DNA of 64,000 bases, taken from a virus. A program made the translations under genes and the position numbers. Shown one piece after another: positions 38,028 to 57,714 of the stretch; the stretch's first letter is position 1, and every line of letters begins with the position of its first letter. Where the stretch lies: IMG/VR virus record IMGVR_UViG_3300006056_000038, positions 1 through 64,000 of that record. The stretch is one strand, 5' to 3'. Below the pieces are notes generated by a model. The model ran no database searches, was not told the DNA's origin, and saw only the letters and a program-made list of their open reading frames with translations.

Positions 38028-38305
38028 ACTGGAAGATCTCCAATACACAATCGGTGCCCACCAAGGTGGCCATCGCCACGGCGAGCAACGGGTCCATCGG
38101 GCTTATCCTTCAGCCGAACCAATTCTGCCTCTCTCTTGACCAGATGACCAAGATGGTCGATGCGCAGGAGAAGCGCGGCTTCATCGCCGTCGACCGTGCA
38201 TACGCCAACGAGTACAACTTGGAGACAGGATTGGTGTTCGACGAGGGATATGTTCCCGAAGGTCACGCCAAGACGAAAGTGAACGAGTATAAGGCGGCGA
38301 ACTGA
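38028..38305 (+). CDS. Hypothetical small protein
   Basis: 92 aa from MSNYWKISNTQ; followed by a terminator. Confidence 0.35.
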
Positions 38306-42836: not shown

Positions 42837-43561
42837 ACATGTGGCCGCCATTTTTTGTCGACCCCTATCAAGATGATATGACTCCGGATACGCCGCAGAA
42901 CAATATTCGAAATACAGTGAAAATGGAAAAGCTTGATGTATCAAAGGTCTTCGTGACCCATTGGGATGCGCTCACCGAAAGAAGAGCGTTCATGGAGGGC
43001 CAACTCCAAAAGAGCGGCATAAAGGACGTGGAATGGGTGACCTCCTTCCCGGTCCCGGAACTGGACAATGAGGAGTTGATCGCGAAGTACCCTGTTGTCT
43101 TCGCCCGAGGAAAGATGGACGCCCGCCTGAGTCCTCCTGTGACCTCTCTTCTTCTCAAGCATTGTTATGTCATCGAGGAGATGGTAAAGCACCAATATGA
43201 GTCCGCGCTCATCTTGGAGGACGACGCCATCCTCGCCAGCAACTTCGCCTCCAAGTTCAACCTCTATAAAAGCCAGCTTCCGGAGGAGTGGGACCTTTTG
43301 TGGGTGGGCACCTGTTGCAATATACATGCGCCCTATCAGCGAGGTAGCAACATCTATGAAGGAGATAGGTCGAGGTGTACCCATTGCTTTTTGATAAGCC
43401 TCAAGTGCGCCCAGAAAATACATGATGACATGTATTCCATCGATATGCCAATCGATTGGTATTATAATGCAATGATCAAGAGGCATTCTCTTCGGAACTA
43501 TTGGGCCGAGCCTCCATTGTCGATGCAGAGCAAGTCATTCAAAACCACCCTGCAACTATGA
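42833..43561 (+). CDS. Glycosyltransferase family 25-like (LPS glycosyltransferase type)
   Basis: THWDALTERRAFMEGQLQKSGIKDVEWV and the overall length fit the GT25 signature (..RR..M..QL...GI....F.A.DG). Confidence 0.45.
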   Translation: MNMWPPFFVDPYQDDMTPDTPQNNIRNTVKMEKLDVSKVFVTHWDALTERRAFMEGQLQKSGIKDVEWVTSFPVPELDNEELIAKYPVVFARGKMDARLSPPVTSLLLKHCYVIEEMVKHQYESALILEDDAILASNFASKFNLYKSQLPEEWDLLWVGTCCNIHAPYQRGSNIYEGDRSRCTHCFLISLKCAQKIHDDMYSIDMPIDWYYNAMIKRHSLRNYWAEPPLSMQSKSFKTTLQL

Positions 43562-44445
43562 GCATCAAGATAGCCTTCTTGGACTTCTGGGGCGACTTCG
43601 ATCCTCACAACAATTTCTTCAAAGACCTGTTGGCATCCATATCGGATGTTGAGGTAACGGATCCGCATGCCTGCGACGTGCTTTTCTTCTCGTGTTTCGG
43701 TCAACAAAATCTGGCCTATCGTAACAAGAAGCGCATCTACTTTACGGGCGAGAACCTTCGTCCGAGCTACGACGTTGATCGGGTGGACCACCGTGGATTC
43801 CGCTCGGACAAATGCGATTATTCCCTCTCCTTCGACTTCAGCGAAGACCCACGCAACATCCGTCTTCCGTTGTGGATGCTCCAGATCGACTGGTTCAACA
43901 AGAAGGGTTACGTCAATCCGAAATTCGTGATGCCGTACGATCAGCTCCACGACAATCTTCTGATGCGGAGGGAGCGTACGGAATTCTGCTCCTTCGTCTA
44001 CAACAATGACGCTCCGCATCGCAAGGAGATCGTACAGGAGCTGTCCCGCTACAAGAAAGTGGATTGCTTCGGGAAGCCGCACGGCAATTGGTTCTACGGC
44101 GAAGACAACAAGCTTGCCACTTTGTCGAGGTACAAGTTCAACATCTGTTTCGAGAACTCCATCCATCCGGGCTATTACACCGAGAAGCCGATCCATGCGA
44201 AGTACGCCGGGTGCGTTCCGGTCTATTGGTCCGACGCCGACATGGGCATCGACTTCAATGCTGCGGCATACTTGAACCTGAACGACTTTGCTGGCATTAA
44301 GGAGCTATGCGAACGGATTGTCGAGTTGGACCAAGACGACCAGCAATACGAAGCGCTGCGTTCCCGACCGATGTTCACGCTGCAACAGGACCCCAAGCAT
44401 TTGCTTGATGCAATTGTCGATCAACTAAAGCCCATTCTGACATGA
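43558..44445 (+). CDS. Glycosyltransferase family 10-like (alpha-1,3-fucosyltransferase motif)
   Basis: [34 protein letters not shown] matches the GT10 signature (F/Y)xLAFENS...(D/G)YxTEK...AL..G.VPV. Start taken at MSIKIAF, overlapping the previous stop. Confidence 0.6.
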
Positions 44446-45533
44446 AGACGGCATTGATCACAGGTTCAGCGGGGCTCATTGGCTCCCAAGCGTGTCGTTT
44501 CTTCCACGATAGGGGCTATCGCATCATCGGTATCGACAACAACATGCGTGCCTACTTCTTCGGAGAGGAAGCATCCACCATGGCCTCGCGCAACGGATTG
44601 GAGGCCTCCCTGTCGAACTACCAACACTACGTCACCGACATCCGCGACCACGCTTCCTTGGAACGATTGTTCCGGGCGTATTCCTCGGACATCGACATCA
44701 TCATCCATACCGCCGCGCAGCCATCGCACGACTGGGCCGCCAAGGAACCATTGACGGACTTCAGCGTCAACGCCACAGGCACCATGAACCTGTTGGAGTT
44801 GACCCGACTGCACTGCCCCAAGGCCACCTTCATCTTCACCTCCACCAACAAGGTGTACGGCGATCGACCGAACTATCTGGAGCTAGTAGAAATGGAGAAA
44901 CGCTGGGAGCTTGACCATGAGCTCCACGAGTTGTCATCGCATCTGGAGGGCGCCAGCATCAATGGCATCGATGAGCGCATGTCCATTGACCGCATCACCC
45001 ACTCGGTGTTCGGGGCCTCCAAGGTGGCCGCTGACATCATGTGCCAAGAGTACGGGAGGTACTTCGGGATGAACGTTGGCGTGTTCCGGGGCGGATGCCT
45101 CACGGGCCCCAACCATGCCGGAACGGAGCTTCACGGCTTCCTGTCGTATTTGGTGAAATGCATCGTCCACGACAAGCCGTACACGATATTCGGGTACAAG
45201 GGCAAGCAGGTTCGCGATAACATCCACAGCGCCGATCTGATCGCCATGTTTTGGGAGTTCCACAAGAACCCGAGGCCGGGCGCCGTATACAATGCTGGAG
45301 GCGGAAGGGAGAATTCCACGTCCATTCTGGAGGCCATCGATTCGATCAATGAAATCGCCGGAACACAGTGGAGCAACTACACGGTCTCGAAGGACAACCG
45401 TATCGGAGATCACATCTGGTACATCAGCGACCTGACGCGCTTCAAGCTGGACTACCCGAAGTGGAGAATGAACATCAACCTGAAGGAGACCATCAAGCAA
45501 ATGGTGGAAGTTGAAAAAATAAGTACGAGATGA
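44442..45533 (+). CDS. NAD-dependent nucleotide-sugar epimerase/dehydratase (extended SDR); the catalytic YxxxK reads FGASK
   Basis: GSAGLIGS Rossmann motif; [10 protein letters not shown]; ...[13 protein letters not shown] aligns with PYGASKAAAD of CDP-paratose-epimerase / UDP-Glc-4-epimerase-type enzymes, but with Phe at the Tyr position. Confidence 0.65.
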
Positions 45534-46174
45534 TATATCCAAGACAAACCGACCTTCCATACCCGCAGCCTTGGGAGTTTGTTTATGAGAACTTCTTCAA
45601 AGACAAAAAAGATTTGTTTTATGTCGATGTTGGCGCGAATGACGGACTTTTGGTCTCAAATACAGCTTTTTTCGAACTTGACATGAACTGGATAGGCATA
45701 TGTATAGAGCCTCATCCTCTTGCATTTTCAAAGCTGGAGACCAATAGAAAGTGTGTAAAATACAACTGTTGCATTAGCGATGAATCAACCACCTTGGAGT
45801 ATAACAAGGTTTCTGGATATGCCGAAATGCTGAGCGGCATAAGATCCGTTCAGGACGATCAACACATGAGAAGGATAATGAGCGAAATACAAAAGCATGG
45901 TGGCACTCTTGAAGTGATCAATGTTGAGTCAAAGAGATTGGATGCCATCTTGAATGAAAACAACATACAACATGTCGACTACCTGTCGATAGACACAGAA
46001 GGCGCAGAAATGAAGGTGCTTTCAAGTTTGGACCTGACTGCTTTTGATATAAAAGTTATAAGTGCAGAGAATTCAGATACGAATGCAACTGTACGGGATT
46101 TCCTGAACTCAAAGGGGTATGACTTTATCACCAAAGTTTGTTCAGATGAAATCTTTGTAAAGCGAAATCCATGA
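45530..46174 (+). CDS. FkbM-family SAM-dependent methyltransferase
   Basis: [19 protein letters not shown]...IEPHP...[12 protein letters not shown] matches the FkbM domain pattern. First gene of the AT-rich island; its start overlaps the stop of the upstream gene (ATGA). Confidence 0.55.
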
Positions 46175-47118
46175 AAATAGCATTCCACGATAACTCGATC
46201 AGTTTGAGAGGCACGACCGTTGCTGTTTTTGACTATGCCTATTGGACTAGGAAAATACTAGGCAATGAGTCCATAATATTGTACAACAAGAACCATTCAG
46301 CCAATTCACCTGATGTGTACAACAAGTTTGCAAAGGAATTCGACATATTTTCCTATGATAACGCGTCTGAAATAGACAGCATCCTTTCAAAGAATGGCTG
46401 TGATGTCTTTTTCATGGAAAAAGCAGGCAAACAAGATGGTGTGATATCGAATGTTTGTGAAAATTGGGTTCACGCCATCGGCATATGCAACAAAGGCAAT
46501 ATACATGGAGACAAGTTCGCCTTAGGTTCAAGGTGGCTTTCAAAAATTGTCAACTTTGACATACCGTATGTGCCATATATGGTCTCTCTTCCGGATCACG
46601 ACGAGAACATGAGAGCGGAATTGAACATACCGGGTGACGCATTTGTATTTGGTAGGAATGGTGGTATTGAGACGTTTGATATTCCTTGGGTCAAACAGAT
46701 GATAATTGAATCCCTAAGATTAAGGAATGATGTCTGGTATGTTTTTCAATTCACCGAACAGTTCGTTCAACATGAGCGGGTCATCCATCTGAATGGCAGT
46801 TCGGACCTGAACGCAAAAACCAAGTTTATCAATACGTGTGACGCCATGTTGCATGCCCGATCGGTTGGTGAATCCTTCGGCCTTTCTTGTGCAGAGTTCT
46901 CAATAAGAAACAAGCCAGTTGTAACTTGGCATGGCTCGCCAGAAAGGAGTCACATCGACATTCTTGGAGATACCGGGATATACTATAATGGCCAGAACGA
47001 TTTGCTTGATATTCTCTTAAGCATGAAGAAAGAAGATGTGGCCAACAAGGATTGGAACTGCTATAAGGACTACTCACCTGAAATAGTGATTGAAAAATTC
47101 AAACAAGTTTACCTATGA
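46171..47118 (+). CDS. Glycosyltransferase, GT-B fold (C-terminal GT4-like motif)
   Basis: VGESFGLSCAEFSIRNKPVVTW, i.e. the E-x-FG...E...G-PVV motif. Confidence 0.45.
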   Translation: MKIAFHDNSISLRGTTVAVFDYAYWTRKILGNESIILYNKNHSANSPDVYNKFAKEFDIFSYDNASEIDSILSKNGCDVFFMEKAGKQDGVISNVCENWVHAIGICNKGNIHGDKFALGSRWLSKIVNFDIPYVPYMVSLPDHDENMRAELNIPGDAFVFGRNGGIETFDIPWVKQMIIESLRLRNDVWYVFQFTEQFVQHERVIHLNGSSDLNAKTKFINTCDAMLHARSVGESFGLSCAEFSIRNKPVVTWHGSPERSHIDILGDTGIYYNGQNDLLDILLSMKKEDVANKDWNCYKDYSPEIVIEKFKQVYL

Positions 47119-47753
47119 CGATAGAACATTATTTGCTTACAATGAGAAACAATGGATATGTTCCAAATTCTATTTTGGACATTGGGGCCAATGTTGGGCA
47201 TCTTTCCATGTTCTGCAAAGGTTTGTGGCCAACGGCCAAAATCCTGATGATGGAAGGCAATGAAAATTGTGAACCAGATCTGCTGCAAACAGGGCTGGAC
47301 TACAAAATATGTCTATTGGGAGATTCCAATAAGGAAGTTGAATTCTTTATGAACAAGAAGAACCCAAAATGCACTGGAGGGTCTTACTACAAGGAGGTGA
47401 CACGACACTATTCAGACAGCGTTGTTATCACAAAACAACTTTCAAAACTCGATGATCTGGTCGATGACGGTTATGACATCATAAAAATAGACACTCAAGG
47501 ATCTGAATTGGACATAATGAAGGGCGGCCCAAGAACCATATCAAATTCTCAATTTGTCATACTTGAGGTCGCAACAAAACAGTACAATCAAGGGTCGCCA
47601 ATGTATGACGAGGTGGTATCATACATGACAAGTATCGGGTTTGACAATAGAGAAGAGATAGAGCGACACTATTGGATGGATGACGACTACGAAAACTTTA
47701 AGAAGGGAGACATTTTTCAAGTGGACATTGTCTTCAGCAGAAACAAAGCATGA
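47115..47753 (+). CDS. FkbM-family SAM-dependent methyltransferase (second copy)
   Basis: ILDIGANVGHLS ... IIKIDTQGSELDIMKG. Confidence 0.55.
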   Translation: MTIEHYLLTMRNNGYVPNSILDIGANVGHLSMFCKGLWPTAKILMMEGNENCEPDLLQTGLDYKICLLGDSNKEVEFFMNKKNPKCTGGSYYKEVTRHYSDSVVITKQLSKLDDLVDDGYDIIKIDTQGSELDIMKGGPRTISNSQFVILEVATKQYNQGSPMYDEVVSYMTSIGFDNREEIERHYWMDDDYENFKKGDIFQVDIVFSRNKA

Positions 47754-48505
47754 AAGTCGCAGTTTGTTTATACGGCTATCCCAGACATGCTCAAATCGGA
47801 GCCAGATCTCTTGGGCACTTTTTTGATGGGATCGAACATGACTTCTTCATACATGCTTGGTACGATCCGAACGAATCAATTGCTTCACTTGATTCTACCC
47901 AAAATGAAATAAGCGGCCTATTCAAGCCAGTGGAATTTGTACTCCAAAAGCAATTGGAGTTCAAGAAGACATTTGATTTCCCGCATGACCTTAGCTGCCT
48001 AAAACCGGAACTGGTCAACCAGAACATTGGTGTTTCCACGTTTTTGTCCATGCTATATTCCATGAAGCAAGTCGGTGAGCTTCTTCAAAGATCACCCAAT
48101 GACTATGAGCTTGTTGTACTGACGAGAACTGATGTTTTCTCTCATAATCAACTTAAAAATTACACCTTCAATTCGTATGATGAAATATACTCATCTTTTT
48201 GTCATGGCGGCATTTGGGATCTTAACAACGGAGGCGAGGCAATAGACACTAAAATGATATCATCAAATAGAAAGAATATGGAGTCACTGATGAACATTTA
48301 TGAGTTCGTCGAAGACTACATAGCTTTTGATAAGATCAAAGTGTGCCATCATAGAATTCTTGCGCATCATCTGAAAAAAATGAATCAAAAGTTTCATATG
48401 ATGTTTCCCGAAAGTGGAAATTGGTTTTACTTAAGAAGCAATGGTCTGTTACATGGAGAAAAATATGATTCTGACATATCGAATTATGCGAACGTCTTCA
48501 AATGA
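47750..48505 (+). CDS. Hypothetical protein, paralogue A (similar to 49233-50027)
   Basis: MKVAVCLYGYPRHAQ... versus MRIALCVSGQMRTFD...: shared N-terminus and similar length. Possibly a glycosyltransferase-like fold; not assignable. Confidence 0.45.
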   Translation: MKVAVCLYGYPRHAQIGARSLGHFFDGIEHDFFIHAWYDPNESIASLDSTQNEISGLFKPVEFVLQKQLEFKKTFDFPHDLSCLKPELVNQNIGVSTFLSMLYSMKQVGELLQRSPNDYELVVLTRTDVFSHNQLKNYTFNSYDEIYSSFCHGGIWDLNNGGEAIDTKMISSNRKNMESLMNIYEFVEDYIAFDKIKVCHHRILAHHLKKMNQKFHMMFPESGNWFYLRSNGLLHGEKYDSDISNYANVFK

Positions 48506-49236
48506 ACATTTTATTTCCAATAGCAGGGGAGGGCAAAAGGTTTCAAAACCAATCCCACATCCCAAAGCCATTGATTGAGATCAATGGAAAGCCAATGTTG
48601 TGGTGGGCGATAAAGACGCTCAACTTGGAAGGCAACTATATTTTCGTTATCCTCAACTATCATGATGACTCTTTCAACGAAAAGATGTCACTTATCCTGA
48701 GTGAAGTCAAAAATGCCAAAATCATAAAGGTAGATCGACCAACAAAAGGTTCGGCCTTCACTTGTCTCTTAGCTGAAGAATACATAGACAATGATGACTC
48801 ATTACTGGTGACGAATTGTGATCAATATCTGAATTGGAAATCAAAAGAGTTTCTTGAGTTCGTCAGCCAAGAGCATTTGGATGCATGCGTTTCCATATAT
48901 GACCATGGAGACATAACAGTAGGAGAAAAAAGCCCTTACTGCTTCGTGGATATCGATGCAGATGGCAAAATAACGAAGTTCTGCGAGAAGCTCGCCATCT
49001 CGAAGCATTCGATGAATGGCATACATTACTGGCGGAAAGGAAAGGATTTTGTTGCTGGTTGTAAGAAAATGATCGAAGACAAGGTGACGGTGAATGGAGA
49101 ATTCTACTTCTCCAGCAGCTTCAATTATTTGATTGAGGACAAGAAGAAAATACTACCTTTCTTTATGAGAAGACATGAGTACATATCACTCGGCACACCG
49201 GAAGACGTTCAAAATAACATTCAAAAGATAAGATGA
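48502..49236 (+). CDS. Sugar-phosphate nucleotidyl(cytidylyl)transferase, IspD/TarI-like
   Basis: MNILFPIAGEGKRFQNQSHIPKPLIEINGKPMLWWAIKTL matches the IspD/TarI N-terminal signature (P-A-G-x-G-x-R ... PKQ(F/Y)L.I.GKP(I/M)L.H). Confidence 0.6.
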   Translation: MNILFPIAGEGKRFQNQSHIPKPLIEINGKPMLWWAIKTLNLEGNYIFVILNYHDDSFNEKMSLILSEVKNAKIIKVDRPTKGSAFTCLLAEEYIDNDDSLLVTNCDQYLNWKSKEFLEFVSQEHLDACVSIYDHGDITVGEKSPYCFVDIDADGKITKFCEKLAISKHSMNGIHYWRKGKDFVAGCKKMIEDKVTVNGEFYFSSSFNYLIEDKKKILPFFMRRHEYISLGTPEDVQNNIQKIR

Positions 49237-50027
49237 GAATAGCTTTATGTGTTTCCGGGCAAATGAGAACTTTTGACAATCCGGGGATAATCGATTTGAA
49301 CAGAAAACTGGTGAAACAATTTTCATGTGATGTTTTTATATCCACATGGAGCAATAGAGGCGTATCATTGTGGAGTCAAGTGGCGTTGCCAAATTTGAAG
49401 AATTTACATGACGTTTCGTTGATTGACCCAATCACAGAGAACATGATACTCAATTCATTTGACAATGTTAAATCTATTGAGATTGAAAATTATGACGATT
49501 TTACCAACCAAATTGAAAGTGTTCGCGTCAAAAACTTGCTGAATGGTGACACAAAATCAATGTTCAATAGCAAGGTGACAAGTTATCCTGAAATGTACAA
49601 AGTATACAAGGCAAATCGTTTGAAAAAAAACCATGAGGATGTTGGACAATTCAAGTATGATGTTGTAATAAGAACTCGACCGGATGTGGCGCACATCAAC
49701 ACCGACATCGATGTTCACTTTCATGATTTGAATGACTCCATATATCACATGAATACCGACTTGACTTTCTTCCAATTGCCAAGGATATACTCTATTTTCT
49801 TTTTTGGGAACTCAAAAACCATGGATGTCATCTCTGATTCCTACAGCGTTTTTCTTGAATTGGCTGACATGGATTCATGCAATCACCTGACTCAATTTGA
49901 TTCGCCCAGATTGTTCTATAATCAATGCACAAAAAATGGCATAGTCGTAAAGACAATACAGAAAACCGTTGGAGATGTGTTCAGAATGGAAGAAGATTTG
50001 GATGAGTATGTTTCAAGATTCAAATGA
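49233..50027 (+). CDS. Hypothetical protein, paralogue B (similar to 47750-48505)
   Basis: See paralogue A. Confidence 0.45.
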   Translation: MRIALCVSGQMRTFDNPGIIDLNRKLVKQFSCDVFISTWSNRGVSLWSQVALPNLKNLHDVSLIDPITENMILNSFDNVKSIEIENYDDFTNQIESVRVKNLLNGDTKSMFNSKVTSYPEMYKVYKANRLKKNHEDVGQFKYDVVIRTRPDVAHINTDIDVHFHDLNDSIYHMNTDLTFFQLPRIYSIFFFGNSKTMDVISDSYSVFLELADMDSCNHLTQFDSPRLFYNQCTKNGIVVKTIQKTVGDVFRMEEDLDEYVSRFK

Positions 50028-50037
50028 CTCAGTCACC

Positions 50038-50736
50038 ATGAGAAAGTTGTTCATGTCCTTTGCGGATTATCGCTATCAATCAAAGCAGGCGGATCTATCA
50101 AGGTCGGCGCAGGCCTATTTTCATACTGTTTATTCTTTTGGCCCGAATGACATTGATCCTGATTTCTTTGAAGAGAACAAGTCAATTCTTATCCATCCAA
50201 AAGGGGCTGGGTACTGGGTGTGGAAGCCTTATTTCTTGCTCAAATGCTTTGAAAGCATGAGTGATGGAGACGTTCTATTCTATGCAGATGCTGGCAATAC
50301 CATAGTTAATGACTTCCGTCCACTTTTCGATCTATTGGAAAGTACGCCCACAAAAACGCTGCTGTTCTTTAATCGCGGCGAAAATGACAAGGCATTTACC
50401 AATAGGTGGTATACCAAATACGACTGCTTTCATTTAATGGATTGTTTAGGCGAAGAGTTCTTTGATGGTGATCATGCGGATGCCGCCTATCAAGTTTATG
50501 AAAAGAACGAGTTCAATAAGAACTTCTTGGAGGAATACTTGAAGTACTGCCTGAATTGGCAAATAATATCAGATTCAAAGAGCATACATGGACAAGAATT
50601 CCAAGACTATCGTGATCATAGGCATGACCAGTCAGTTTTATCCAATCTTGCAATAAAGTACAAAATTCACTTACACCCTCAGCCTGATCAATACGGCATT
50701 AAGGATTACCTGAACGTTTTTGACCACCATAGATAA
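50038..50736 (+). CDS. Hypothetical protein (possible nucleotide-sugar-dependent transferase)
   Basis: Start MRKLFMSF, 11 nt after the upstream stop. Conserved-looking block ILIHPKGAGYWVWKPYFLLKCF...VLFYADAGN. Confidence 0.4.
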   Translation: MRKLFMSFADYRYQSKQADLSRSAQAYFHTVYSFGPNDIDPDFFEENKSILIHPKGAGYWVWKPYFLLKCFESMSDGDVLFYADAGNTIVNDFRPLFDLLESTPTKTLLFFNRGENDKAFTNRWYTKYDCFHLMDCLGEEFFDGDHADAAYQVYEKNEFNKNFLEEYLKYCLNWQIISDSKSIHGQEFQDYRDHRHDQSVLSNLAIKYKIHLHPQPDQYGIKDYLNVFDHHR

Positions 50737-50749
50737 AATACACTGAAGC

Positions 50750-51859
50750 ATGAATACAAGAACAACTTGCGTCATATGCCAGCACGATATATTGCGCGAA
50801 TTCCATAAGCTGAATTCAATGCCAGTTTTCATGGGAACTGTACCCAGTGAGATGGAATACAAGTTTCAAGAAATGTCCTTTGTCGAATGTCTTTCTTGTG
50901 GAGAAATTCAACTTGGATCATATCCCAGCATATCTGACCTCTACCTAAGAAACCACAATGTTGATGTGGTTGGACAGCTATGGAATTCACACTTCGACTC
51001 ATTCGCGAACTTTATCGGAAACGTTGAGAACAAAAGGGTTCTGGAAATAAGCGACCCCAGCGCTAAGGTTGCCAAAAAATGCAGCAAGTTCAAAAAGTGG
51101 ACCATAGTAGAGATGAACCCATTTTTTGAAACCACCGACAACATAGATGTGATAAAGGGCTATTTCTCGTATGATCTCTCAATCGACATTGATGTCGATA
51201 TAATAGTCCATTCGCACTTTTTCGAGCACTCGCTTGATCCCAACCGCGACCTTAAGAAGATGTGGGAAACCCTTCCTGAGGATGGTGAAATGTTTTTTTC
51301 GATACCAGACATCCCATCTTTGATCGAACATTCCAATTCGCCAACCGCTTTGAACTTTGAACACACCTACTACTATGATCTGGAACTGTTATCCTTCCTT
51401 CTTGAAAGGAATGGATTTCAAGTGGTCAGAGTAGATGGTTTTAAGAGCCATTCCATATTCATACATGTAAAAAAACTGCCACATCCCATGCCGCAAACAA
51501 GCATTGGTTACAGGGATAGGAAAAAAATATTCATAGATTGCTTTGTATTTCACAAAAATAGTATAACTTGCATTAACAATGCTTTAGAGAAACAAGAAAA
51601 CACGTTCATATACGGGTCACACGTAACAAGCCAGTTTTACATGTTCAATGGACTGAACATAAGTCTTGTCGGAGTTCTGGATAGGTCAAACTCAAAAAAC
51701 AGCGAACTTCTATACGGCACAAATCTGAGAACGTTTTATCCAGAAGAATTGCGAAACCACAATGAACCCAATGTCATAGTTTCTCATTCAAGCATCTACA
51801 AAAATGAGATCATAGACGACATAAGGTCCTTCGCTGGCGATAAGGTCAAATTCTTCTAA
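50750..51859 (+). CDS. SAM-dependent C-methyltransferase-type enzyme with N-terminal zinc ribbon (TylCIII/NDP-hexose C-methyltransferase-like architecture)
   Basis: CVICQHDIL...CLSCGEIQL Cys4 ribbon, followed by a methyltransferase-like core (LEISDPSAK; HSHFFEHSLDP) and a C-terminal domain. Confidence 0.5.
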   Translation: MNTRTTCVICQHDILREFHKLNSMPVFMGTVPSEMEYKFQEMSFVECLSCGEIQLGSYPSISDLYLRNHNVDVVGQLWNSHFDSFANFIGNVENKRVLEISDPSAKVAKKCSKFKKWTIVEMNPFFETTDNIDVIKGYFSYDLSIDIDVDIIVHSHFFEHSLDPNRDLKKMWETLPEDGEMFFSIPDIPSLIEHSNSPTALNFEHTYYYDLELLSFLLERNGFQVVRVDGFKSHSIFIHVKKLPHPMPQTSIGYRDRKKIFIDCFVFHKNSITCINNALEKQENTFIYGSHVTSQFYMFNGLNISLVGVLDRSNSKNSELLYGTNLRTFYPEELRNHNEPNVIVSHSSIYKNEIIDDIRSFAGDKVKFF

Positions 51860-51869
51860 CAAAAACAAA

Positions 51870-52484
51870 GTGAAAATGAACAAAGTAGACCAAGTAATAC
51901 AAGACATTAAAAATGGCAAACCCGTCATCATAGTTGATGATTATGACCGAGAGTTTGAAGGGGACATCATGCTCGCAGCAGAGATGGCAGATAAGTACAA
52001 TCTCATTTTCTCTATGAGGCACGCCAAAGGCCTTATGTGTCTCCCTTGCTTGCAGGAGCGTTGTGATCGATTGGATATCCCCATGATGAGAACAAACAAC
52101 AATGACAAATTTGGTACGCCATTTACAGTATCAATTGATGCCATTGAAGATACGACCACGGGTATGTCTGTTTTTGACAGACTGAAGACCATATCTGTTT
52201 TTCTTGATGAAAGCTCAAGCCCGAAACAGCTTGCTCAGCCCGGACACTTATTTCCACTTCGAGCAAGACCCGGACTCCTGAAAGAGAGAAGGGGACATAC
52301 GGAAGGCTCAATTGAATTGTGCCTGCTATCCGGGCTAAAACCTGTAGCGGTCATAATCGAGATTATGAACGAAGATGGAACCATGATCAAAGGCGAGCAG
52401 CTTGAGGACTTCTCCAAGATATACAACTTGAGCATAATCTCAATAGAAGAGATCCATAATGCAGTTTATAACAAGGGCCTATAA
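51870..52484 (+). CDS. ribB: 3,4-dihydroxy-2-butanone-4-phosphate synthase (RibB)-like enzyme
   Basis: Collinear with E. coli RibB: IIVDDYDREFEGDIMLAAE (VLDDEDRENEGDMIFPAE), MRHAKGLMCLPC (IRHGSGIVCLCI), FGTPFTVSIDA (YGTGFTVTIEA), PGHLFPLRARPGLLKERRGHTEGSIEL ([27 protein letters not shown]), MNEDGTM (TNDDGTM). Confidence 0.75.
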   Translation: MKMNKVDQVIQDIKNGKPVIIVDDYDREFEGDIMLAAEMADKYNLIFSMRHAKGLMCLPCLQERCDRLDIPMMRTNNNDKFGTPFTVSIDAIEDTTTGMSVFDRLKTISVFLDESSSPKQLAQPGHLFPLRARPGLLKERRGHTEGSIELCLLSGLKPVAVIIEIMNEDGTMIKGEQLEDFSKIYNLSIISIEEIHNAVYNKGL

Positions 52485-53418
52485 CAGCTTTGAAATTGAT
52501 AGCTCCAACCTATCAGTTGTCATCAAGAGGTCAAAGGAAACCAGACTCCTTGAGGAAATAGGCTATTATGATAACTTGCCAAAAGAGTTGGCCCCATTCT
52601 TCCCAAGGCATTTCCATTCGGATAAAATCGGGCCAGAGTTTCGCCTTGGCTTAGAATATTATGCATATCAAAATGTTGGCAACAAAATGATATCGCATGA
52701 ATATGATGATGAGTTCTGGAATTCATTTTTCAACATCATAGGGAAGTATTTCAAAGCTTACAAGTCCATTACTGAGTCGCCCAAAAATGAGAATGATTGC
52801 AGGATGATGTTCATTGATAAGACCGAAAAAGAATACCAGTCCTTGGTAGACAATTTCATGTTCTTCGGCGAATTGACCTCTCATGACACCATCAATCTAA
52901 ATGGCAGAAAGCTGCGATCATTTTCTCATGTCTGGCCCAAGGTAAGGTCATACATCGATGGGAGTTGTCTTTCGGAAAAAACGTACTTGATACATGGAGA
53001 CCTTTGCTTCAGCAACATTCTATTTGGACAGAACCCAATAAACAATGATGTGATAATCAAGCTTATTGACCCAAGGGGCTCCTTCGGCGGTTCAATGCTG
53101 GGGGATATGTACTATGACCTTGCAAAGCTTTCACACTCTTCCAGCGGTGGTTATGAATACTTCATAAACGATAGTTTTGAAGTAAAAAGCGACGGGAACA
53201 AGTGTACTTTGTCTTATGATAACGACAACAAAGACAGAGTGAACGACCTGTTCATCAAATTTGTGGAAGACAATGAGTTTGACATGAAAAAGATCAAGAC
53301 CCTAGAGGGGGCTATTTTTATTGGAATGTGCGCCAGACATTATGATTCACCAGAAAGACAGAAAGCAATGTTTTTGACTGGCCTGAGAATTCTAAATGAT
53401 ATCTATGAAACAGTTTAG
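52459..53418 (+). CDS. Protein-kinase-like-fold phosphotransferase (APH/choline-kinase/sugar-kinase family)
   Basis: Brenner motif YLIHGDLCFSNILF (H-x-D-x4-N), followed by IKLIDPRGSFGG (the IDxxG segment that, with the Brenner motif, defines this kinase family). Confidence 0.5.
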   Translation: MQFITRAYNSFEIDSSNLSVVIKRSKETRLLEEIGYYDNLPKELAPFFPRHFHSDKIGPEFRLGLEYYAYQNVGNKMISHEYDDEFWNSFFNIIGKYFKAYKSITESPKNENDCRMMFIDKTEKEYQSLVDNFMFFGELTSHDTINLNGRKLRSFSHVWPKVRSYIDGSCLSEKTYLIHGDLCFSNILFGQNPINNDVIIKLIDPRGSFGGSMLGDMYYDLAKLSHSSSGGYEYFINDSFEVKSDGNKCTLSYDNDNKDRVNDLFIKFVEDNEFDMKKIKTLEGAIFIGMCARHYDSPERQKAMFLTGLRILNDIYETV

Positions 53419-53776
53419 GTATTGCTTCGATCTGGATGGTACAATATGCGAAACCAAATCACTTGGACAAAGCTATGCAGATGTCAACCCTCTTCCCGGC
53501 GCAGTAGAAACACTGAAAAAACTAAGAACCCAAGGGCACTACATAATAATTCTCACCGCGAGGAACATGTCAACCTATGACAATAATTTGGGAAAAGTCA
53601 TTGCAAATCAGGCGCCAATTGTCCTAGATTGGCTGAGAAAATACGAAATCCCATATGATGAGTTGTTGTTCGGAAAGCCGAATGCGGACTTCTTCATTGA
53701 TGATAAAGGGGTTCAATTCACCAACTGGAATGAGCTAAACCAAAAACTGCTTATAGATGAGAAAATTTCTAATTGA
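53396..53776 (+). CDS. HAD-superfamily phosphatase
   Basis: Motif I FDLDGTI, motif II IILTAR, motif III K....FFIDD; 126 aa. Confidence 0.6.
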   Translation: MISMKQFRYCFDLDGTICETKSLGQSYADVNPLPGAVETLKKLRTQGHYIIILTARNMSTYDNNLGKVIANQAPIVLDWLRKYEIPYDELLFGKPNADFFIDDKGVQFTNWNELNQKLLIDEKISN

Positions 53777-54563
53777 TACAGCCAATCAGGACTACATACG
53801 AAACCTTTGGAAATCCTTAAACGGCACCGTTGATAACAAGCTTGTTCAAGGAATAACAACCAATCCAAATGCGTTTTTCAAAACGAACGAATTGCACCTG
53901 AAGGACTGGGAGAAATCTCTCCCGAAGCTTTGTGAAATTGTATCAGAGATAAGACAGGACGACGCTGGATATGTGCATATTCAAGCTCCGAATTCATCCA
54001 TGAATGGAGATGCTATGTTGAGATATGCCGAGCATGTCCATAAACTAACCGATGGAAATACCAAGATCGCCATAAAAATTCCACCATTTGTTCGAGCGCT
54101 GAAAGCGGTAGACCAACTAAGGGAAATGGTCAAGATCAACGTCACTGGAATAGCAGACTGCTCAACTGCTTTGAAATGCATCACGTATGGTGTTGACTTT
54201 GTCAGTATCATACCCGGAAGAATGGAGGAGGTCGGGATAGATGCCAAAAAGCAGATATCCTTCATCCTGCAATCATGCAGGAAGAATTCTGAAATAATCA
54301 CAGGGTCTATGAGAACAATAGACGGATTGATATGGGTTTTTCAGTATGATACCATACCCACGATTGGGGAGAAGGTTTGGAATATTCTACTGGAAAACAA
54401 CAACCTTCAAAAAGTCATTGACATTGACTATAGCATGGCGCACGATGATAGTGAATTTTCTCCAGAGATCAATGAGTTGAATTCCAACCTGTCAAATTCC
54501 TTTTTCCAACAAATGGATGAATGTGGGAGAACGTGTTTTGAAGACTGGAAAAAATCATCATAA
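53757..54563 (+). CDS. Transaldolase/fructose-6-phosphate-aldolase (TalC/Fsa) family enzyme
   Basis: FLIDTANQDYI...GITTNPNAF matches the L(Y/F)LDT..(L/V)..I...G(V/I)TTNP signature. KIAIKIPPFVRALKAV aligns with the Schiff-base lysine region (VVKVPVTAEGLAAIKML of E. coli Fsa). Confidence 0.6.
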   Translation: MRKFLIDTANQDYIRNLWKSLNGTVDNKLVQGITTNPNAFFKTNELHLKDWEKSLPKLCEIVSEIRQDDAGYVHIQAPNSSMNGDAMLRYAEHVHKLTDGNTKIAIKIPPFVRALKAVDQLREMVKINVTGIADCSTALKCITYGVDFVSIIPGRMEEVGIDAKKQISFILQSCRKNSEIITGSMRTIDGLIWVFQYDTIPTIGEKVWNILLENNNLQKVIDIDYSMAHDDSEFSPEINELNSNLSNSFFQQMDECGRTCFEDWKKSS

Positions 54564-54575
54564 AGCTCATTTAAC

Positions 54576-55394
54576 ATGTTGGGCGTACAAGCAGGCAATG
54601 AAGCCATAAAGAACCTGATCCGGTCAGGAAAGCCATTCCTCGTGAACCGCATGCGGTCCGAGGTGGATGTCATTTTCAAATCCATCAAAGGTCTCCCTCT
54701 GAACAAGGAGAACCACGATGACCTGTACATCAAATGCGGCGTATACCCCTATGGGGACATGGAGCAAATTGGGCCCTTCATCCGGGAGACCATCACCTCG
54801 ATGAACTTGGCCGACGCATGGGGCTATTGCACATTCTACTGCCCCTATCAGGACTGGCTCATCAAGAACGTATCCCGGACCCAATGCGTGTTCGACTTCG
54901 TTGCCCTTGAGCCGATCTACCATGAAGTACCATGGACCCTTGAGCTTGCAGGTAAGAAAGTGCTCATCGTCCATCCTTATGTGGATACAATGAAACGGCA
55001 GGAATCGAAGCTTCTGGAGATCGCAGGCGGCAAGGAACAGTTCAGGGACGTGGAGTTCAAGTACATCAAGGCGGTGCAGTCGATGACCGGAAATGCCCCG
55101 CACGGGTCGTGGAGCGAATCCTACCAAACAATGAAGGATGAGATCGCCGACGCAGACTTCGACGTGGCCCTTCTGGGGTGCGGCGGATACGGCATGCCAC
55201 TGAGCGGATACATCAAGTCCATCGGCAAGAGCGCTGTGTACATCGGAGGCGGGCTTCAATTGATCTTCGGCATCAAAGGGAAGCGATGGGACGACTCGGA
55301 CATGTCCAAACATTACAACGAACACTGGGTGCGCCCCTCCGTGGAAGAAACCCCGGAGAACTACATGCTCCACGAAAACGGAGCGTATTTTTGA
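54576..55394 (+). CDS. Hypothetical protein (possible glycosyltransferase-like)
   Basis: 272 aa; GC content returns to the backbone level here; conserved-looking block FDVALLGCGGYGMPLSGYIK. Confidence 0.4.
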   Translation: MLGVQAGNEAIKNLIRSGKPFLVNRMRSEVDVIFKSIKGLPLNKENHDDLYIKCGVYPYGDMEQIGPFIRETITSMNLADAWGYCTFYCPYQDWLIKNVSRTQCVFDFVALEPIYHEVPWTLELAGKKVLIVHPYVDTMKRQESKLLEIAGGKEQFRDVEFKYIKAVQSMTGNAPHGSWSESYQTMKDEIADADFDVALLGCGGYGMPLSGYIKSIGKSAVYIGGGLQLIFGIKGKRWDDSDMSKHYNEHWVRPSVEETPENYMLHENGAYF

Positions 55395-56050
55395 TGAAGC
55401 TCCTCTGCTATTTCACCCCGTCCCACAAGGACATGTTCGAGGGCTTCCTCAAACGAAGCTGCGACCTATTTGGGGAGCATGAGATTATCGCCTTCATGGA
55501 CCAAGAGCAGTTGTCCGACGACGGCTCATTCTACAGCAAGGGATTCCACGAGACGGTGGTCAAGAAGATGGATTTCATTCTTGGTTCCAACGCGTGGGAT
55601 GACACGGAGCATTTCATCTTTTCGGATGCTGACGTCATTTTCACGGCGCCCACCCAAGAGTACTTTCTGGAGCAGATCGCCGAGCATGACATCGTGTTCC
55701 AAAGCGACCAGACCACTTACAACAGCGGGCTGTACGTGTTCCGCAATAACTCCAAGGTCAAGGCGATGTTCGAAGAGGCGGTCCGCGTAAAGGACCAACA
55801 CTTCGGGGACCAGTTGTGCATCGATGCTGCCCTGCGCGCCGTTCCGCTCAAGTGCAAGGCGTTTGACAAGACCATCTTCAACATCTCCTTCTACATGGGA
55901 GGAAGTCTTTGGGACAACGCCAGCACCATTCATTTCCCCAAGCACATGCGAGCCTACCATGCCAACTTCATCGTCGGTGTGGACAACAAGATAAAAGCGC
56001 TGACCCAAGCCCATGACCGATTCGTTGCGCCCAAGCTCAGCCACGCATAA
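55394..56050 (+). CDS. Putative GT-A nucleotide-diphospho-sugar transferase (DxD type)
   Basis: Start MKLLCYFTP (trimmed from track ORF 55178-56050). FIFSDADVIF (DxD), ...DQTTYNSGLYVFR. Confidence 0.45.
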   Translation: MKLLCYFTPSHKDMFEGFLKRSCDLFGEHEIIAFMDQEQLSDDGSFYSKGFHETVVKKMDFILGSNAWDDTEHFIFSDADVIFTAPTQEYFLEQIAEHDIVFQSDQTTYNSGLYVFRNNSKVKAMFEEAVRVKDQHFGDQLCIDAALRAVPLKCKAFDKTIFNISFYMGGSLWDNASTIHFPKHMRAYHANFIVGVDNKIKALTQAHDRFVAPKLSHA

Positions 56051-56849
56051 GTACCCGTTCTACCACGAGGGGCTTTACTTGGAGGAATACTTCCACCGCC
56101 ATCGGAAGCGCCATGACGGGCGGCAATACATCGATGCGTTCTGGACCAACATCTACTCCAACCGCTCCTTTGCTGGCATCCATAGCGTGGATGTGCAATC
56201 GGAGCTCGACAAGCTGGACCCGAACGGGCGATATTTCACCGTATGCCAGAACGACGACGGGGTCTTGGAACGCCTGCCAAAGGACACGCTGAAGTTCTGC
56301 GCCGGAGGCAACAACGTCGATGATGCCACCATCCCCATTCCTCTATTGGCGTCGCCCATTCCCGGCATTGACCTTTCCCGGGAGAAGGACCTGCTGGCGA
56401 GCTTCGTCGGAAGCAACACCCATCCTTTGCGTGCTGAGATGCACAAGACACTTCGTGGTCGTCCGGGATTTTCGGTACAGATGAAGAATTGGTCCCTTGA
56501 ACTTCCGGACGCTTCCGCAAGGCAGTTCATGGACCTGTCATCTCGCTCGAAGTTCATGCTCGCCCCGAGAGGATATGGAAGGACGAGTTTTCGTCTCTAC
56601 GAGGCCTTCCAGTTCGATTGCATTCCCGTGTATATCAGCGATTCGATGTTCCTTCCTTATTCTGATGTCATAAATTGGAATGATTTTACTATATTGATAA
56701 CTCCCGATAGAATCGGGGACATAGAGAATATCCTTAATGCTTCATTGACGAATGGTGAATATGACAGGATATTGAACAACGTCAAACAAAACAAACATCT
56801 GTTTACCATGGAGTACATGGTCGAATATATCGAAAGCAAAACAACATGA
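56013..56849 (+). CDS. Exostosin-like glycosyltransferase (GT47-type C-terminal domain)
   Basis: SRSKFMLAPRGYGRTSFRLYEAFQFDCIPVYISDSMFLPYSDVINWNDFTILI matches the exostosin/GT47 signature (S.F.L.P.G...S.R..EA...GCIPVI.SD...LPF.D..DW..FS). Confidence 0.5.
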   Translation: MTDSLRPSSATHKYPFYHEGLYLEEYFHRHRKRHDGRQYIDAFWTNIYSNRSFAGIHSVDVQSELDKLDPNGRYFTVCQNDDGVLERLPKDTLKFCAGGNNVDDATIPIPLLASPIPGIDLSREKDLLASFVGSNTHPLRAEMHKTLRGRPGFSVQMKNWSLELPDASARQFMDLSSRSKFMLAPRGYGRTSFRLYEAFQFDCIPVYISDSMFLPYSDVINWNDFTILITPDRIGDIENILNASLTNGEYDRILNNVKQNKHLFTMEYMVEYIESKTT

Positions 56850-57616
56850 GAACATTAGGCATTTCCATCGACGGCGTCATTCGGGACTTCAACTCCCAGT
56901 TCCATAAGACCTACGTCAAGACGTTCATCCATAACGATTCGCTCGTCGCCGCCAATATCCCTTCACATGCCGAAGCGCGCATGAACGGCTTGGGAGATGG
57001 AGACTTCGTGGCACAAGAGACCACCGAAAGTGACGAACTCATGGTGCAGCAGGCTGTTGAGAAAAAGGAAAAGGACCTGATCTCCCTACCCGTCAACAGC
57101 GACGACTTGCTCAACCACTATCGCTTCGAAGAGGGGAAGATGGATTTCATTACCACGGCAGATGGGAAGGAACCCGATAAGATCATCACGCCGAAGGATG
57201 CCTTGAACAAATTCATCTTCGAGGATTATCCGTTCCAGATCTTCGGCATGGCCTCCGAATACGATGGTGCCAATGAAATGGTGAACCGCATCCAAGGCTA
57301 CGGCCGTCAGAAGGAATTCTTCAACGTCGTTCTTCTGTCATCCGCGCAGAAACAGGCCATTCCCGCTACTTACAACTTTTTGGCGCGTTGCCATTCACGC
57401 GCCAAGTCGGTCGTATTCGTGGAGCGTGAAGAAGACAAGTGGGACCACTGCGACGTGCTCATTGATGCGAATCCACGCGCCATCCAAGCGGTGCCAACGG
57501 ACAAGTTCGTCATCCGCATTTTGCGCGACTGGAACCAATATGACGACATCGAGTACACTTATTCCAATCTGAAGGAGGTGCTCAGTTCCGGCGTTCTGGA
57601 CAAGCTGTTCAAGTGA
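56846..57616 (+). CDS. Hypothetical protein
   Basis: 256 aa. The N-terminus ISIDGVIRDF is reminiscent of, but does not satisfy, the HAD DxDGx motif. Confidence 0.4.
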   Translation: MRTLGISIDGVIRDFNSQFHKTYVKTFIHNDSLVAANIPSHAEARMNGLGDGDFVAQETTESDELMVQQAVEKKEKDLISLPVNSDDLLNHYRFEEGKMDFITTADGKEPDKIITPKDALNKFIFEDYPFQIFGMASEYDGANEMVNRIQGYGRQKEFFNVVLLSSAQKQAIPATYNFLARCHSRAKSVVFVEREEDKWDHCDVLIDANPRAIQAVPTDKFVIRILRDWNQYDDIEYTYSNLKEVLSSGVLDKLFK

Positions 57617-57642
57617 GTCGATAACCTCATATCCATTTCTGG

Positions 57643-57668
57643 AATGGGCGACAATATTGTCGCCCATT
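57643..57668 (+). terminator. Intrinsic terminator
   Basis: AATGGGCGACAA-tat-TTGTCGCCCATT followed by TTCTTTTTGC. Confidence 0.65.
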
Positions 57669-57714
57669 TTCTTTTTGCACAAAACTCCCTTTGTTTTCGG
57701 TAGCCTCCCATTCT

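Follow-up and report, generated by a model that had tools for sequence, protein, structure and literature searches.

An AT-rich phage gene cassette that may build and activate an unusual ketose

Could a phage build an unusual sugar of its own and activate it for glycan synthesis? Here, we analyze a stretch of viral DNA of 64,000 nucleotides (IMG/VR record IMGVR_UViG_3300006056_000038, positions 1 to 64,000; hereafter the window), in which an AT-rich tract at 45530-54563 lies inside a cluster of glycan genes. The tract encodes a nucleotidyltransferase (NTase), a RibB-type 3,4-dihydroxy-2-butanone 4-phosphate (DHBP) synthase, a kinase, a haloacid dehalogenase (HAD) phosphatase and an aldolase, which constitute the strict core of a cassette that recurs in other phages. 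We suggest, with about even confidence, that the cassette builds and activates an unusual ketose from DHBP, and that its central 9 kb has been swapped with the copy of a lower-GC relative. An earlier reading of the letters alone (the original prediction) had described the tract as a horizontally acquired island in a T4-like phage, encoding a self-contained pathway to an unusual sugar or polyol phosphate activated by cytidine diphosphate (CDP).

The AT-richness, which had been claimed by eye, is borne out by computation. The GC content of the tract is 40.0%, compared with 52.1% for the sequence on its left (1-45529) and 51.6% for that on its right (54564-64000), and the flanks resemble the rest of the phage in GC content, as had been supposed. 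The 9-kb windows placed outside the tract have a mean GC of 0.520 (standard deviation 0.011, minimum 0.493), against which the tract has a z of -10.8. GC content at third codon positions (GC3) is 0.41-0.49 in all 12 genes of the tract and 0.63-0.78 in the adjacent genes, and the distance in relative synonymous codon usage (RSCU) to the backbone centroid ranges from 1.58 to 1.93 for the 12 tract genes and from 0.50 to 1.26 for 21 backbone genes, so the two ranges are disjoint. The compositional difference is at synonymous sites. Step changes were found near both 45.5 and 54.6 kb, each of them inside one 150-nt window, from 0.49 to 0.39 at the left border (45530) and from 0.37 to 0.51 at the right border (54576). 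Both steps fall at gene boundaries: the left border is the ATGA stop/start overlap at 45530-45533 that had already been noticed, and at the right border a 12-nt spacer is followed by the ATG at 54576. Between them, 12 open reading frames (ORFs) were recovered, all in the same direction, in agreement with the original count. No tRNA gene was found in the window, the direct repeats at the tract borders are chance-level 14-20-mers with nothing meaningful among them, and the Pfam annotation of the 12 proteins contains no recombinase or integrase.

The assignment of a RibB-like DHBP synthase is well founded. The protein of gene i9 (the genes of the tract are numbered i1 to i12 in Table 1) passes the cutoffs of Pfam and of the equivalog domain TIGR00506 (200.1 bits versus 177.45), and its start is probably the ATG at 51876. 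The residues R27, E28, E30, D32, C57, H126, R140, H143, T144, E145 and E164 are all present and are invariant in 28 phage copies. The canonical motif residues, that is, the RExEGD acidic loop, the Cys, the GH-FPL His, the RRGHTE loop and the late Glu, align with those of solved RibBs, and presumably have the same roles in the active site.

The aldolase, i12, belongs to the superfamily of transaldolase and fructose-6-phosphate aldolase (TAL/FSA), with D7, N36, Q76, K107 (the Schiff-base Lys) and T130 invariant in 29 of 29 sequences, and departs from both named enzymes. A transaldolase has a Glu in addition to the Lys (Glu96 in TalB, Glu60 in TacTAL), and this site is Gln76 in all 29 sequences; an FSA has Gln59 and Tyr131, of which the Gln is kept while the Tyr site is occupied by Ile, Val, Leu, Met or Phe. 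The score against the FSA equivalog TIGR00875 is 48 bits, with a cutoff of 246. The best PDB match is the E60Q/F132Y variant of Thermoplasma transaldolase, an FSA mimic, and the PHROG matched is phrog_440, “transaldolase”. Consequently, the original label of a transaldolase/Fsa-like aldolase holds for the superfamily, with the transaldolase Glu replaced by an invariant Gln as in FSA. In characterised TAL/FSA enzymes, the Glu and the aromatic site that are swapped in i12 surround the acceptor carbonyl. Their replacement would fit an altered acceptor, and is not evidence for one.

For the NTase, i5, the proposal of an IspD/TarI-like cytidylyltransferase is not supported. The IspD family PF01128 gives 23.6 bits, below its cutoff of 27 and over the N-terminal 75 residues only, and TIGR00453 gives 19.4 bits versus 181; the best matches are sugar-1-phosphate nucleotidyltransferases, with 4evw, HddC and RmlA as solved relatives, and CDP is unproven. 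The G-x-G-x-R signature is kept (P6, A8, G9, G11 and R13 are conserved), and no NCBIfam equivalog cutoff is reached. The kinase-like phosphotransferase and the HAD phosphatase were both recognised rightly. The former, i10, has the HxDxxxxN loop, the metal-binding Asp and the bilobal fold of the aminoglycoside phosphotransferase (APH) and eukaryotic-like kinase (ELK) group, and its structural neighbours include two anomeric kinases, methylthioribose (MTR) kinase and maltokinase. The latter, i11, probably starts at 53396 or 53405 and has intact HAD motifs (DxDGT, D12, D14, T16, T54, K94, D102 and D103), invariant in 27 sequences; its nearest named family is that of the EcbF/BcbF capsule phosphatases, TIGR01689, matched over the full length with E = 2e-23. 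A choline-type (LicA/LicC) reading of these genes was also considered and rejected: there is no choline-kinase Pfam match, the transferases have glycosyltransferase (GT) folds and an HAD is present.

Among deposited phages, the nearest is Synechococcus phage S-SKS1 (HQ633071; L001 in our list of loci), whose genes SWZG_00038-00046 share 31-65% protein identity with the window; L002, L172-174 and about 30 others are metagenomic phage contigs. With 33 further loci from metagenome assemblies and IMG/VR neighbourhoods, a census of 34 cassettes was made. The kinase and RibB are present in all 34, the aldolase in 33 and the HAD in 32, and the order RibB-kinase-HAD-aldolase is fixed throughout. In 18 of the 34, a single protein of 449-480 aa combines NTase and RibB; the carriers include L005, L089-L100, L103, L105, L107 and S-SKS1 itself (L001 11248-12675, SWZG_00042), where the fusion is labelled simply DHBP synthase in GenBank. 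The strict core of the cassette is NTase-RibB-kinase-HAD-aldolase. We regard the cassette as one functional unit because RibB, kinase, HAD and aldolase are each present in 32-34 of the 34 cassettes, in a fixed order, and because NTase and RibB are fused in 18. Around the core, the census counted the GT-A family in 30 cassettes (about two copies each), a short-chain dehydrogenase/reductase (SDR) in 24, a GT4-like protein and a fucosyltransferase in 18 each, a C-methyltransferase in 15, GT47 in 14, and GT25 and i7 in 13 each. In metagenomes, the kinase family has 916 homologs.

Therefore, the gene combination, of which the original prediction knew no example in a T4-like phage, is not new: the published genome of S-SKS1 carries it, labelled hypothetical, and PHROGs labels the cassette families “unknown function”. 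Its function is undescribed in the searched literature, in which, for S-SKS1, ribB and DHBP synthase in phages, no description of the cassette was found. Compared with GenBank phages by megablast, neither the island nor the left flank gave a match; a single-protein scan of IMG/VR found none, but a profile scan did retrieve loci. The T4-like backbone fared no better, since no T4 hallmark gene was recovered in the window, where only a generic tail sheath, a prohead protease and PhoH were recognised, and the best phage protein matches, at about 30% identity, are to Aeromonas, Erwinia and Ackermannviridae-type phages.

Two observations on the relatives may be added. A related cassette contig, L003, carries gp32 (T4-like), and at 12126-15822 three further genes come after its cassette, for a second NTase (NTP_transf_3), a TylF-type methyltransferase and a 409-aa protein similar to the RuBisCO large subunit. 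RuBisCO-like proteins act on unusual ketose phosphates, and this one may be a further tailoring or salvage step. In the RefSeq version of S-SKS1 (NC_020851.1, ~37107-38066) a “phosphoheptose isomerase” stands where GenBank has a hypothetical protein, and phrog_1238, which is matched by the phage HAD, is labelled in the same way. Because the HAD has phosphatase motifs, this label looks like a propagated misannotation.

The kinase, HAD and NTase also form a trio in cellular genomes. A profile scan that covered one genome per prokaryotic species found homologs of the kinase (about 30% identity) at 539 bacterial and archaeal loci. In the best 80 of these 539, for which neighbourhoods were counted, an NTase homolog is adjacent in 72 and a small HAD in 65, and RibB together with the aldolase is present in one. 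The neighbours of the trio are polysaccharide genes, such as GT4, GT2, Wzm/Wzt, WbaP-like and WavE. With the Aeromonas copy as DNA probe, the trio was found in 31 E. coli genomes. The four E. coli loci examined (L168-L171, for example L168 at NZ_CP116925.1 1781265-1789242 and L169 at NZ_AP045820.1 4536997-4546049) all lie at the galF-gnd O-antigen locus, and in one of the four, wzm/wzt are labelled O92 family by the Prokaryotic Genome Annotation Pipeline (PGAP). They contain an HAD, a 513-aa kinase protein, a separate NTase, Wzm, Wzt, a WavE-family protein and a GT-A-family protein. The identity to the phage proteins is 42% for the HAD, 29% over the full domain for the kinase and 24-25% for the NTase. 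In the 513-aa protein, the N-terminal ~200 aa look NTase-like by eye and the kinase domain is C-terminal. In addition, the profile of the phage GT-A family matches a protein in every trio-bearing O-antigen locus tested, with E from 1.7e-12 to 7e-47.

The E. coli O92 antigen is a linear homopolymeric fructan, and the genes for xylulofuranose linked to a nucleoside diphosphate (NDP) were not found for O95 and O97 (PMC7685785). In Pasteurella multocida, BcbF is predicted to take part, with BcbE and BcbG, in adding the fructose side chain of the capsule; bcbE and bcbG mutants confirm this role for these two genes alone, and no bcbF mutant could be made (PMC13552107). BcbF belongs to the HAD family that is nearest to the phage HAD. 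Two other fructose-containing systems, E. coli K4 (KfoE fructosyltransferase) and Campylobacter HS1 (fructose transferase HS1.08), spoke neither for the trio nor against it. We infer that the trio makes nucleotide-activated ketofuranoses, by a route in which a ketose phosphate would be converted to the free ketose by the HAD, to the ketose 2-phosphate by the kinase and to the NDP-ketose by the NTase. Because the O92 antigen is a fructan, the E. coli O-antigen trio loci are candidates for the genes of NDP-fructofuranose synthesis and transfer. No description of ketofuranose activation was found in the NDP-fructose and xylulofuranose literature searched.

The single “cellular” locus with the full set among the best 80 of the 539, L011, is a 7.2-kb contig of a Saprospiraceae metagenome-assembled genome (CALNYY010000073.1) and carries RibB-kinase-NTase-HAD-aldolase together with a GT-A gene. 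This contig may be mis-binned phage DNA or a prophage, or may reflect a bacterial use of the full pathway.

Based on the family memberships, the integrity of the motifs, the gene linkage and fusion and the homology to the E. coli module, a pathway could be drawn, of which all the substrates and products, the nucleotide and the target of glycosylation are inferred. Ribulose 5-phosphate would be converted to DHBP and formate by RibB, whose family membership is clear and whose activity is predicted from it. TAL/FSA enzymes normally use glyceraldehyde 3-phosphate as acceptor, and DHBP is its methyl-ketone analogue; DHBP is also a substituted hydroxyacetone, hydroxyacetone being a normal FSA donor. 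Dephosphorylated DHBP has four carbons, with which no furanose ring is possible. A chain-extending aldolase would be required because DHBP cannot form a furanose and offers no anomeric hydroxyl to the kinase. The aldolase i12 is the only candidate for the chain extension, and this fits the strict co-occurrence of RibB and aldolase. It may join DHBP to a C2 or C3 unit to give a longer ketose phosphate able to cyclise, probably C-methyl- or hydroxymethyl-branched, or 1-deoxy. For example, DHBP as the acceptor and a dihydroxyacetone unit would give 4-C-methyl-hexulose 6-phosphate, and with DHBP in either role, acceptor or donor, a branched or 1-deoxy ketose phosphate would result. The HAD would then strip the terminal phosphate, the APH-fold kinase would phosphorylate the anomeric hydroxyl and the NTase would make the NDP-sugar, steps that we propose because the homologous module is found in an E. 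coli O92 (fructan) O-antigen locus. Tailoring of the sugar or the glycan may fall to the SDR, the C-methyltransferase and the FkbM methyltransferases. Finally, the GT-A proteins i4 and i6 and the GT4-like protein would transfer the sugar and, with the neighbouring fucosyl-, GT25- and GT47-type transferases, assemble a glycan whose carrier may be a virion protein or a surface molecule of the host.

The pathway originally envisaged, complete in itself and leading to an unusual or branched sugar activated by a nucleotide, is plausible apart from its CDP. The polyol phosphate that had been offered as its other possible product is less likely than a ketofuranose: the trio lies in O92-type loci, its companions are GT-A and GT-B proteins and no phosphotransferase family of Pfam matches any of the island proteins. 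As a more specific and tentative proposal, RibB and a new subfamily of FSA-like aldolases might build a branched-chain ketofuranose that is activated by a trio so far unrecognised although widespread, which would also make NDP-fructose and probably NDP-xylulose, with the dedicated DUF7796-like GT-A family of bacteria, phages and giant viruses as the ketofuranosyltransferase.

Several points weigh against a ketose built from DHBP. The substrates of the aldolase are a guess and the roles of the enzymes are read from their families, and TAL/FSA enzymes rarely carry out an aldol addition in which the acceptor is a ketone or the donor carbon is tertiary. The HAD scores 82.5 bits against the TIGR01689 cutoff of 162, and is related to that family without being a member by the NCBI threshold. 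The link from the trio to NDP-fructose is drawn from gene content and a published glycan structure, not from biochemistry, and the E. coli sample consists of one O92-labelled genome with frameshifted genes and of related unlabelled loci, not of the O92 reference strain. Just as readily, the NTase::RibB fusion would be explained by an NTase that acts on DHBP directly. In that case, DHBP or a methylated or reduced derivative might be turned into a CDP-linked C4 ketol or polyol phosphate, analogous to CDP-glycerol, CDP-ribitol and CDP-methylerythritol, and be added as a phosphodiester substituent. Apart from the 18 fusions among the 34 cassettes, the weak IspD-family similarity at the N-terminus of i5 and the SDR, which is nearest to a CDP-sugar epimerase, would agree with such a product. 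MtmC/TylCIII-type C-methyltransferases modify NDP-linked substrates at a position adjacent to a keto group, and a position of this kind exists in DHBP. However, we consider this route unlikely, since it assigns no role to the kinase, HAD and aldolase, which are strictly conserved, and does not account for the same kinase-HAD-NTase module in a fructan O-antigen locus; moreover, the IspD score is below cutoff, with sugar-1-phosphate enzymes as the best matches of the NTase, the companions have GT-A and GT-B folds with no Pfam match to a phosphotransferase family, and the C-methyltransferase is present in only 15 of the 34 cassettes. Similarly improbable, in our view, is an auxiliary metabolic role of RibB and the TAL-like gene, in riboflavin supply and pentose-phosphate rerouting (the latter has been proposed for cyanophage talC), beside a module whose own substrate would be a common ketose, for example fructose or xylulose. 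The pair occurs with the trio, in fixed order, in 33-34 of the 34 cassettes, with RibB fused to the NTase in 18, and at just one of the best 80 of the 539 cellular trio loci; according to Pfam annotation, neither the cassette nor its neighbours contain any other riboflavin-pathway gene; and in the aldolase the Glu of transaldolases is replaced by an invariant Gln, with i12 lacking an aromatic residue at the Phe/Tyr site. Against these stand a fully canonical RibB, the match of the aldolase to phrog_440 and the trio of the E. coli O92-type loci, which would be enough for fructose on its own. In the remaining scheme, the aldolase would act first and build a longer ketose phosphate, from which the RibB homolog, by dehydration, rearrangement and loss of formate on a non-canonical ketose, would yield a 1-deoxy chain-shortened ketose for the kinase, phosphatase and NTase. 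The enzyme set recalls in outline the lincosamide and heptose sets LmbR/LmbP/LmbK/LmbO and GmhA/HddA/GmhB/HddC, and HddC is among the solved relatives of the NTase. We find this scheme quite unlikely: the canonical motif residues of RibB and its passing of the TIGR00506 cutoff argue for ribulose 5-phosphate, no sugar-phosphate isomerase was detected in the cassette with Pfam and NCBIfam, and the kinase type differs from that of the heptose routes.

The origin of the tract also has to be weighed, and here the relatives are informative. The gene order of L172-174 is that of the window (GT25, fucosyltransferase, SDR, block, 272-aa gene), only the i6/i7 pair being placed differently. Their GC is 0.35-0.46 throughout, about 0.44 in the flanks and 0.40 in the block, and the protein identity to the window is 69-93% for the island and 72-85% for the flanks. 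The nucleotide identity of the block is 76-79% to L172/L174 and 71-80% to L002; for L002 (GC about 0.35), that of the flanks is about 65% and patchy, and the protein identities are 61-88% for the island and 40-70% for the flanks, L002 being, like L172-174, a sister in both parts. The composition of the block is alike in all the relatives, and the flanks of the window alone are at 0.52-0.56. Within the window, the functionally linked flank genes for the SDR, the fucosyltransferase, the 272-aa protein and GT47 have backbone composition. The AT-rich tract is best explained by horizontal exchange. Of the horizontally acquired island that had been proposed, the distinct composition and the sharp borders remain, while there are no signatures of mobility and the relatives have the same syntenic cassette and flanks. 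Because they do, the simplest reading is that the tract is the replaced centre of an ancestral cassette (xenologous replacement), not the arrival of a new function, and recombination between syntenic cassettes is a better description than a mobile island. The lineage may first have moved to higher GC, and the centre of its cassette may later have been swapped by recombination with a lower-GC relative. The exchange has its own difficulties: the donor of the island was not found in the databases, the proteins of L172-174 match those of the island no better than those of the flanks, and the timing and direction are inferred from composition alone. Could the AT-richness instead reflect a local mutational or selective regime, such as expression timing, acting on vertically inherited genes? 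The similar protein identity of L172-174 to island and flanks and the absence of an integrase, a tRNA or flanking repeats would be expected from such a regime. We nevertheless regard it as very unlikely, as the ~150-nt steps lie exactly at gene boundaries inside one co-directional array with overlapping stop and start codons, the linked neighbours named above keep backbone composition, and the GC of the island equals that of the homologous block in the lower-GC relatives.

The genes of the tract and its neighbourhood are listed in Table 1.

Table 1. Genes of the AT-rich tract and its flanks in the window
Gene	Position	Strand	Assignment	Evidence or remark
	42833-43561	+	GT25	Pfam; GC-rich left flank
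	~43558-44445	+	GT10 fucosyltransferase	Pfam; GC-rich left flank
	44442-45533	+	SDR epimerase/dehydratase	nearest PDB 1orr, CDP-tyvelose 2-epimerase, E = 2e-32, full length
i1	45530-46174	+	FkbM methyltransferase	PF05050 83.6 bits; TIGR01444; 82% identity in L172
i2	46171-47118	+	GT-B/GT4-like glycosyltransferase	invariant E234-x7-E242; 315 aa
i3	47115-47753	+	FkbM methyltransferase	PF05050 53.5 bits; TIGR01444
i4	47750-48505	+	GT-A-fold glycosyltransferase-like	related to DUF7796, phrog_13607
i5	48502-49236	+	sugar-1-phosphate-type nucleotidyltransferase	PF00483 41.9 bits (cutoff 21.2)
i6	49233-50027	+	paralog of i4, GT-A fold by homology	family alignments shared with i4; phrog_13607
i7	~50008-50736	+	conserved protein	candidate starts 49969 TTG, 49975, 50002 or 50008 ATG
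i8	50750-51859	+	MtmC/TylCIII-type sugar C-methyltransferase-like	accessory tailoring enzyme (putative)
i9	51876-52484	+	RibB (DHBP synthase)	PF00926 231.6 bits (cutoff 26.4)
i10	52459-53418	+	APH/ELK-fold small-molecule kinase	intact catalytic loop
i11	53396-53776	+	small cap-less HAD phosphatase	HAD motifs I-IV
i12	53757-54563	+	class-I TAL/FSA-family aldolase	PF00923 65.4 bits (cutoff 27)
	54576-55394	+	272-aa protein	GC-rich right flank; 85% identity to post-aldolase gene in L172
	ends 56050	+	homolog of PF03407 nucleotide-diphospho-sugar transferase	via L002 homolog, 70% identity
	56013-56849	+	GT47	PF03016 76.8 bits; GC-rich right flank

Among them, the two FkbM methyltransferases were correctly predicted, and the predicted GT-B glycosyltransferase is probably GT-B/GT4-like, on the EX7E motif and weak profile matches: no Pfam family matches i2, and against the PDB its family profile finds B736L, TreT and WbaZ weakly, with a best E of 0.004 over the C-terminal half only. 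The paralogous pair i4 and i6, originally described as unknown, has the GT-A glycosyltransferase fold, and i4 is a candidate transferase for the sugar of the cassette. The BFVD structural matches of i4 include A7ITQ7 (M177L of Paramecium bursaria Chlorella virus MT325), and further giant-virus structural relatives are the DUF7796 proteins of Catovirus, Tupanvirus, Fadolivirus and Sylvanvirus; with tblastn, i6 matches the 707-aa protein of E. coli L169 with E = 1e-8. The idea that the phage GT-A family is WavE-like, which came from the WavE neighbours of the bacterial trio, was rejected at a profile-profile probability of 4%. For i7, no Pfam, NCBIfam or PHROG match was found; its start is probably at 50002-50008, slightly different from the longest-ORF call, and its homologs, of about 242 aa in the 13 cassettes, include one of 82% identity in L172. 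The TylCIII-like C-methyltransferase is upheld for i8 as a prediction from profiles, since positions 5-353 of 367 of its family profile align to residues 11-392 of 4rv9 (D-mycarose 3-C-methyltransferase), with E = 4e-8. It has an invariant F-E-H-T motif and a conserved C-terminal domain; its only Pfam match is Methyltransf_23, and by profile either C- or O-methylation is possible.

Outside the tract, the SDR gene is GC-rich (GC3 0.78). Homologs of 46-56% identity immediately follow the aldolase gene in L088 and L098 and have another place within the cassette of L100, and L174 has an SDR of 81% identity at the position that it has in the window. The SDR probably belongs to the pathway of the cassette despite its GC-rich composition. 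GT25 and fucosyltransferase homologs flank the cassette in S-SKS1, L002, L003, L005 and L174, and both genes are part of one conserved glycan locus with it. On the right, the longest ORF of the PF03407 homolog (55178-56050, with a GTG start) overlaps the 272-aa gene by about 200 nt, and its real start is probably downstream of 55394.

Some features elsewhere in the window should be noted. Smaller AT-rich patches (GC 0.41-0.47) are located at 5765-7606, 23082-25880, 30894-32081 and 18010-19611. The ORFs at 5765-7606 and 23082-25880 match HNH/homing endonucleases, the second also having a methyltransferase-like stretch, and the remaining patches coincide with ORFs of lower GC3 (0.50-0.56). These patches look like separate mobile insertions. 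In a 606-aa ORF at 28988-30811 on the minus strand, the prohead protease match is limited to residues 480-574, while residues 85-165, as well as the N-terminus of the next ORF (30894-32081, minus strand), match phrog_85, which has a thymidylate synthase label. This suggests an intein or another insertion in the prohead protease region. A PhoH-like gene at 36199-37038 (minus strand), a type common in marine phages, is located just upstream of the glycan cluster.

If the proposed pathway is true, DHBP synthase would, for the first time as far as we know, serve the synthesis of a glycan precursor instead of that of flavins. The pathway would moreover lead to a branched sugar independently of S-adenosylmethionine, and would represent a new class of sugar-nucleotide pathway and a source of a new phage-made sugar. 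The origin of activated ketofuranoses is unexplained for the fructose of E. coli O92 and K4 and of Pasteurella B/E and Haemophilus capsules, and for the xylulose of E. coli O95/O97 and Yersinia. The kinase-HAD-NTase trio with its GT-A family would be a concrete, testable candidate for this activation that exists in culturable E. coli. Judging by the metagenomic kinase homologs, the cassette is common in aquatic phages, and exotic phage glycans may be under-appreciated in phage-host interaction. Here, S-SKS1 on Synechococcus WH7803 offers a culturable system.

How does the cassette compare with known systems? S-SKS1 has, like the window, the C-methyltransferase, GT-A proteins, NTase, RibB, kinase, HAD, aldolase, GT4-like protein and SDR, beside GT25, fucosyltransferase and GT47 genes. 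However, its NTase and RibB are a single 475-aa fusion, the gene order is different, the FkbM genes are absent save a remnant, and the region is uniformly at ~33-35% GC, without a compositional island. The E. coli O92-type module has an HAD, an APH-fold kinase, an NTase and a GT-A member inside a glycan locus with glycosyltransferases, as in the phage. It differs in having neither RibB nor the aldolase, in the extra N-terminal NTase-like domain of its kinase, in its WavE-family and Wzm/Wzt companions, and in its presumed substrate, fructose 6-phosphate, which is a central metabolite and not a purpose-built sugar.

In the MupP/AmgK/MurU route of UDP-MurNAc recycling, the GmhB/HddA/HddC route to GDP-heptose and the LmbR/LmbP/LmbK/LmbO route to the GDP-octose of lincomycin, a terminal phosphate is exchanged for an anomeric one before the nucleotide is attached; AmgK is an APH-fold kinase, and LmbR, of the TAL/FSA family, builds the carbon skeleton. 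The proposed phage route would share this logic of phosphatase, anomeric kinase and nucleotidyltransferase. Unlike it, none of these routes uses RibB or DHBP and their products are aldoses, and the heptose and octose routes depend on a sugar-phosphate isomerase and on kinases of the GHMP or ribokinase type. With FSA and transaldolase, i12 shares the TAL_FSA Pfam family, the Schiff-base Lys, the Asp, Asn and Thr and, at the FSA Gln59 site, the Gln, whereas it lacks the transaldolase Glu and the FSA Tyr, is aliphatic at the Phe/Tyr site and has ~45 extra C-terminal residues.

Finally, chloroviruses and giant viruses, like the phage, encode glycosyltransferases, methyltransferases and sugar-nucleotide enzymes of their own, but they infect eukaryotes and no RibB-based sugar pathway has been reported there. 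The N-glycans of chlorovirus capsids contain fucose and methylated sugars, with xylulofuranose in MT325 and TN603 (PMC9614988). The structural match between M177L of MT325 and i4, alongside the xylulofuranose of the same virus, is a correlation only. The xylulofuranose itself shows that viral glycans can carry ketofuranoses.

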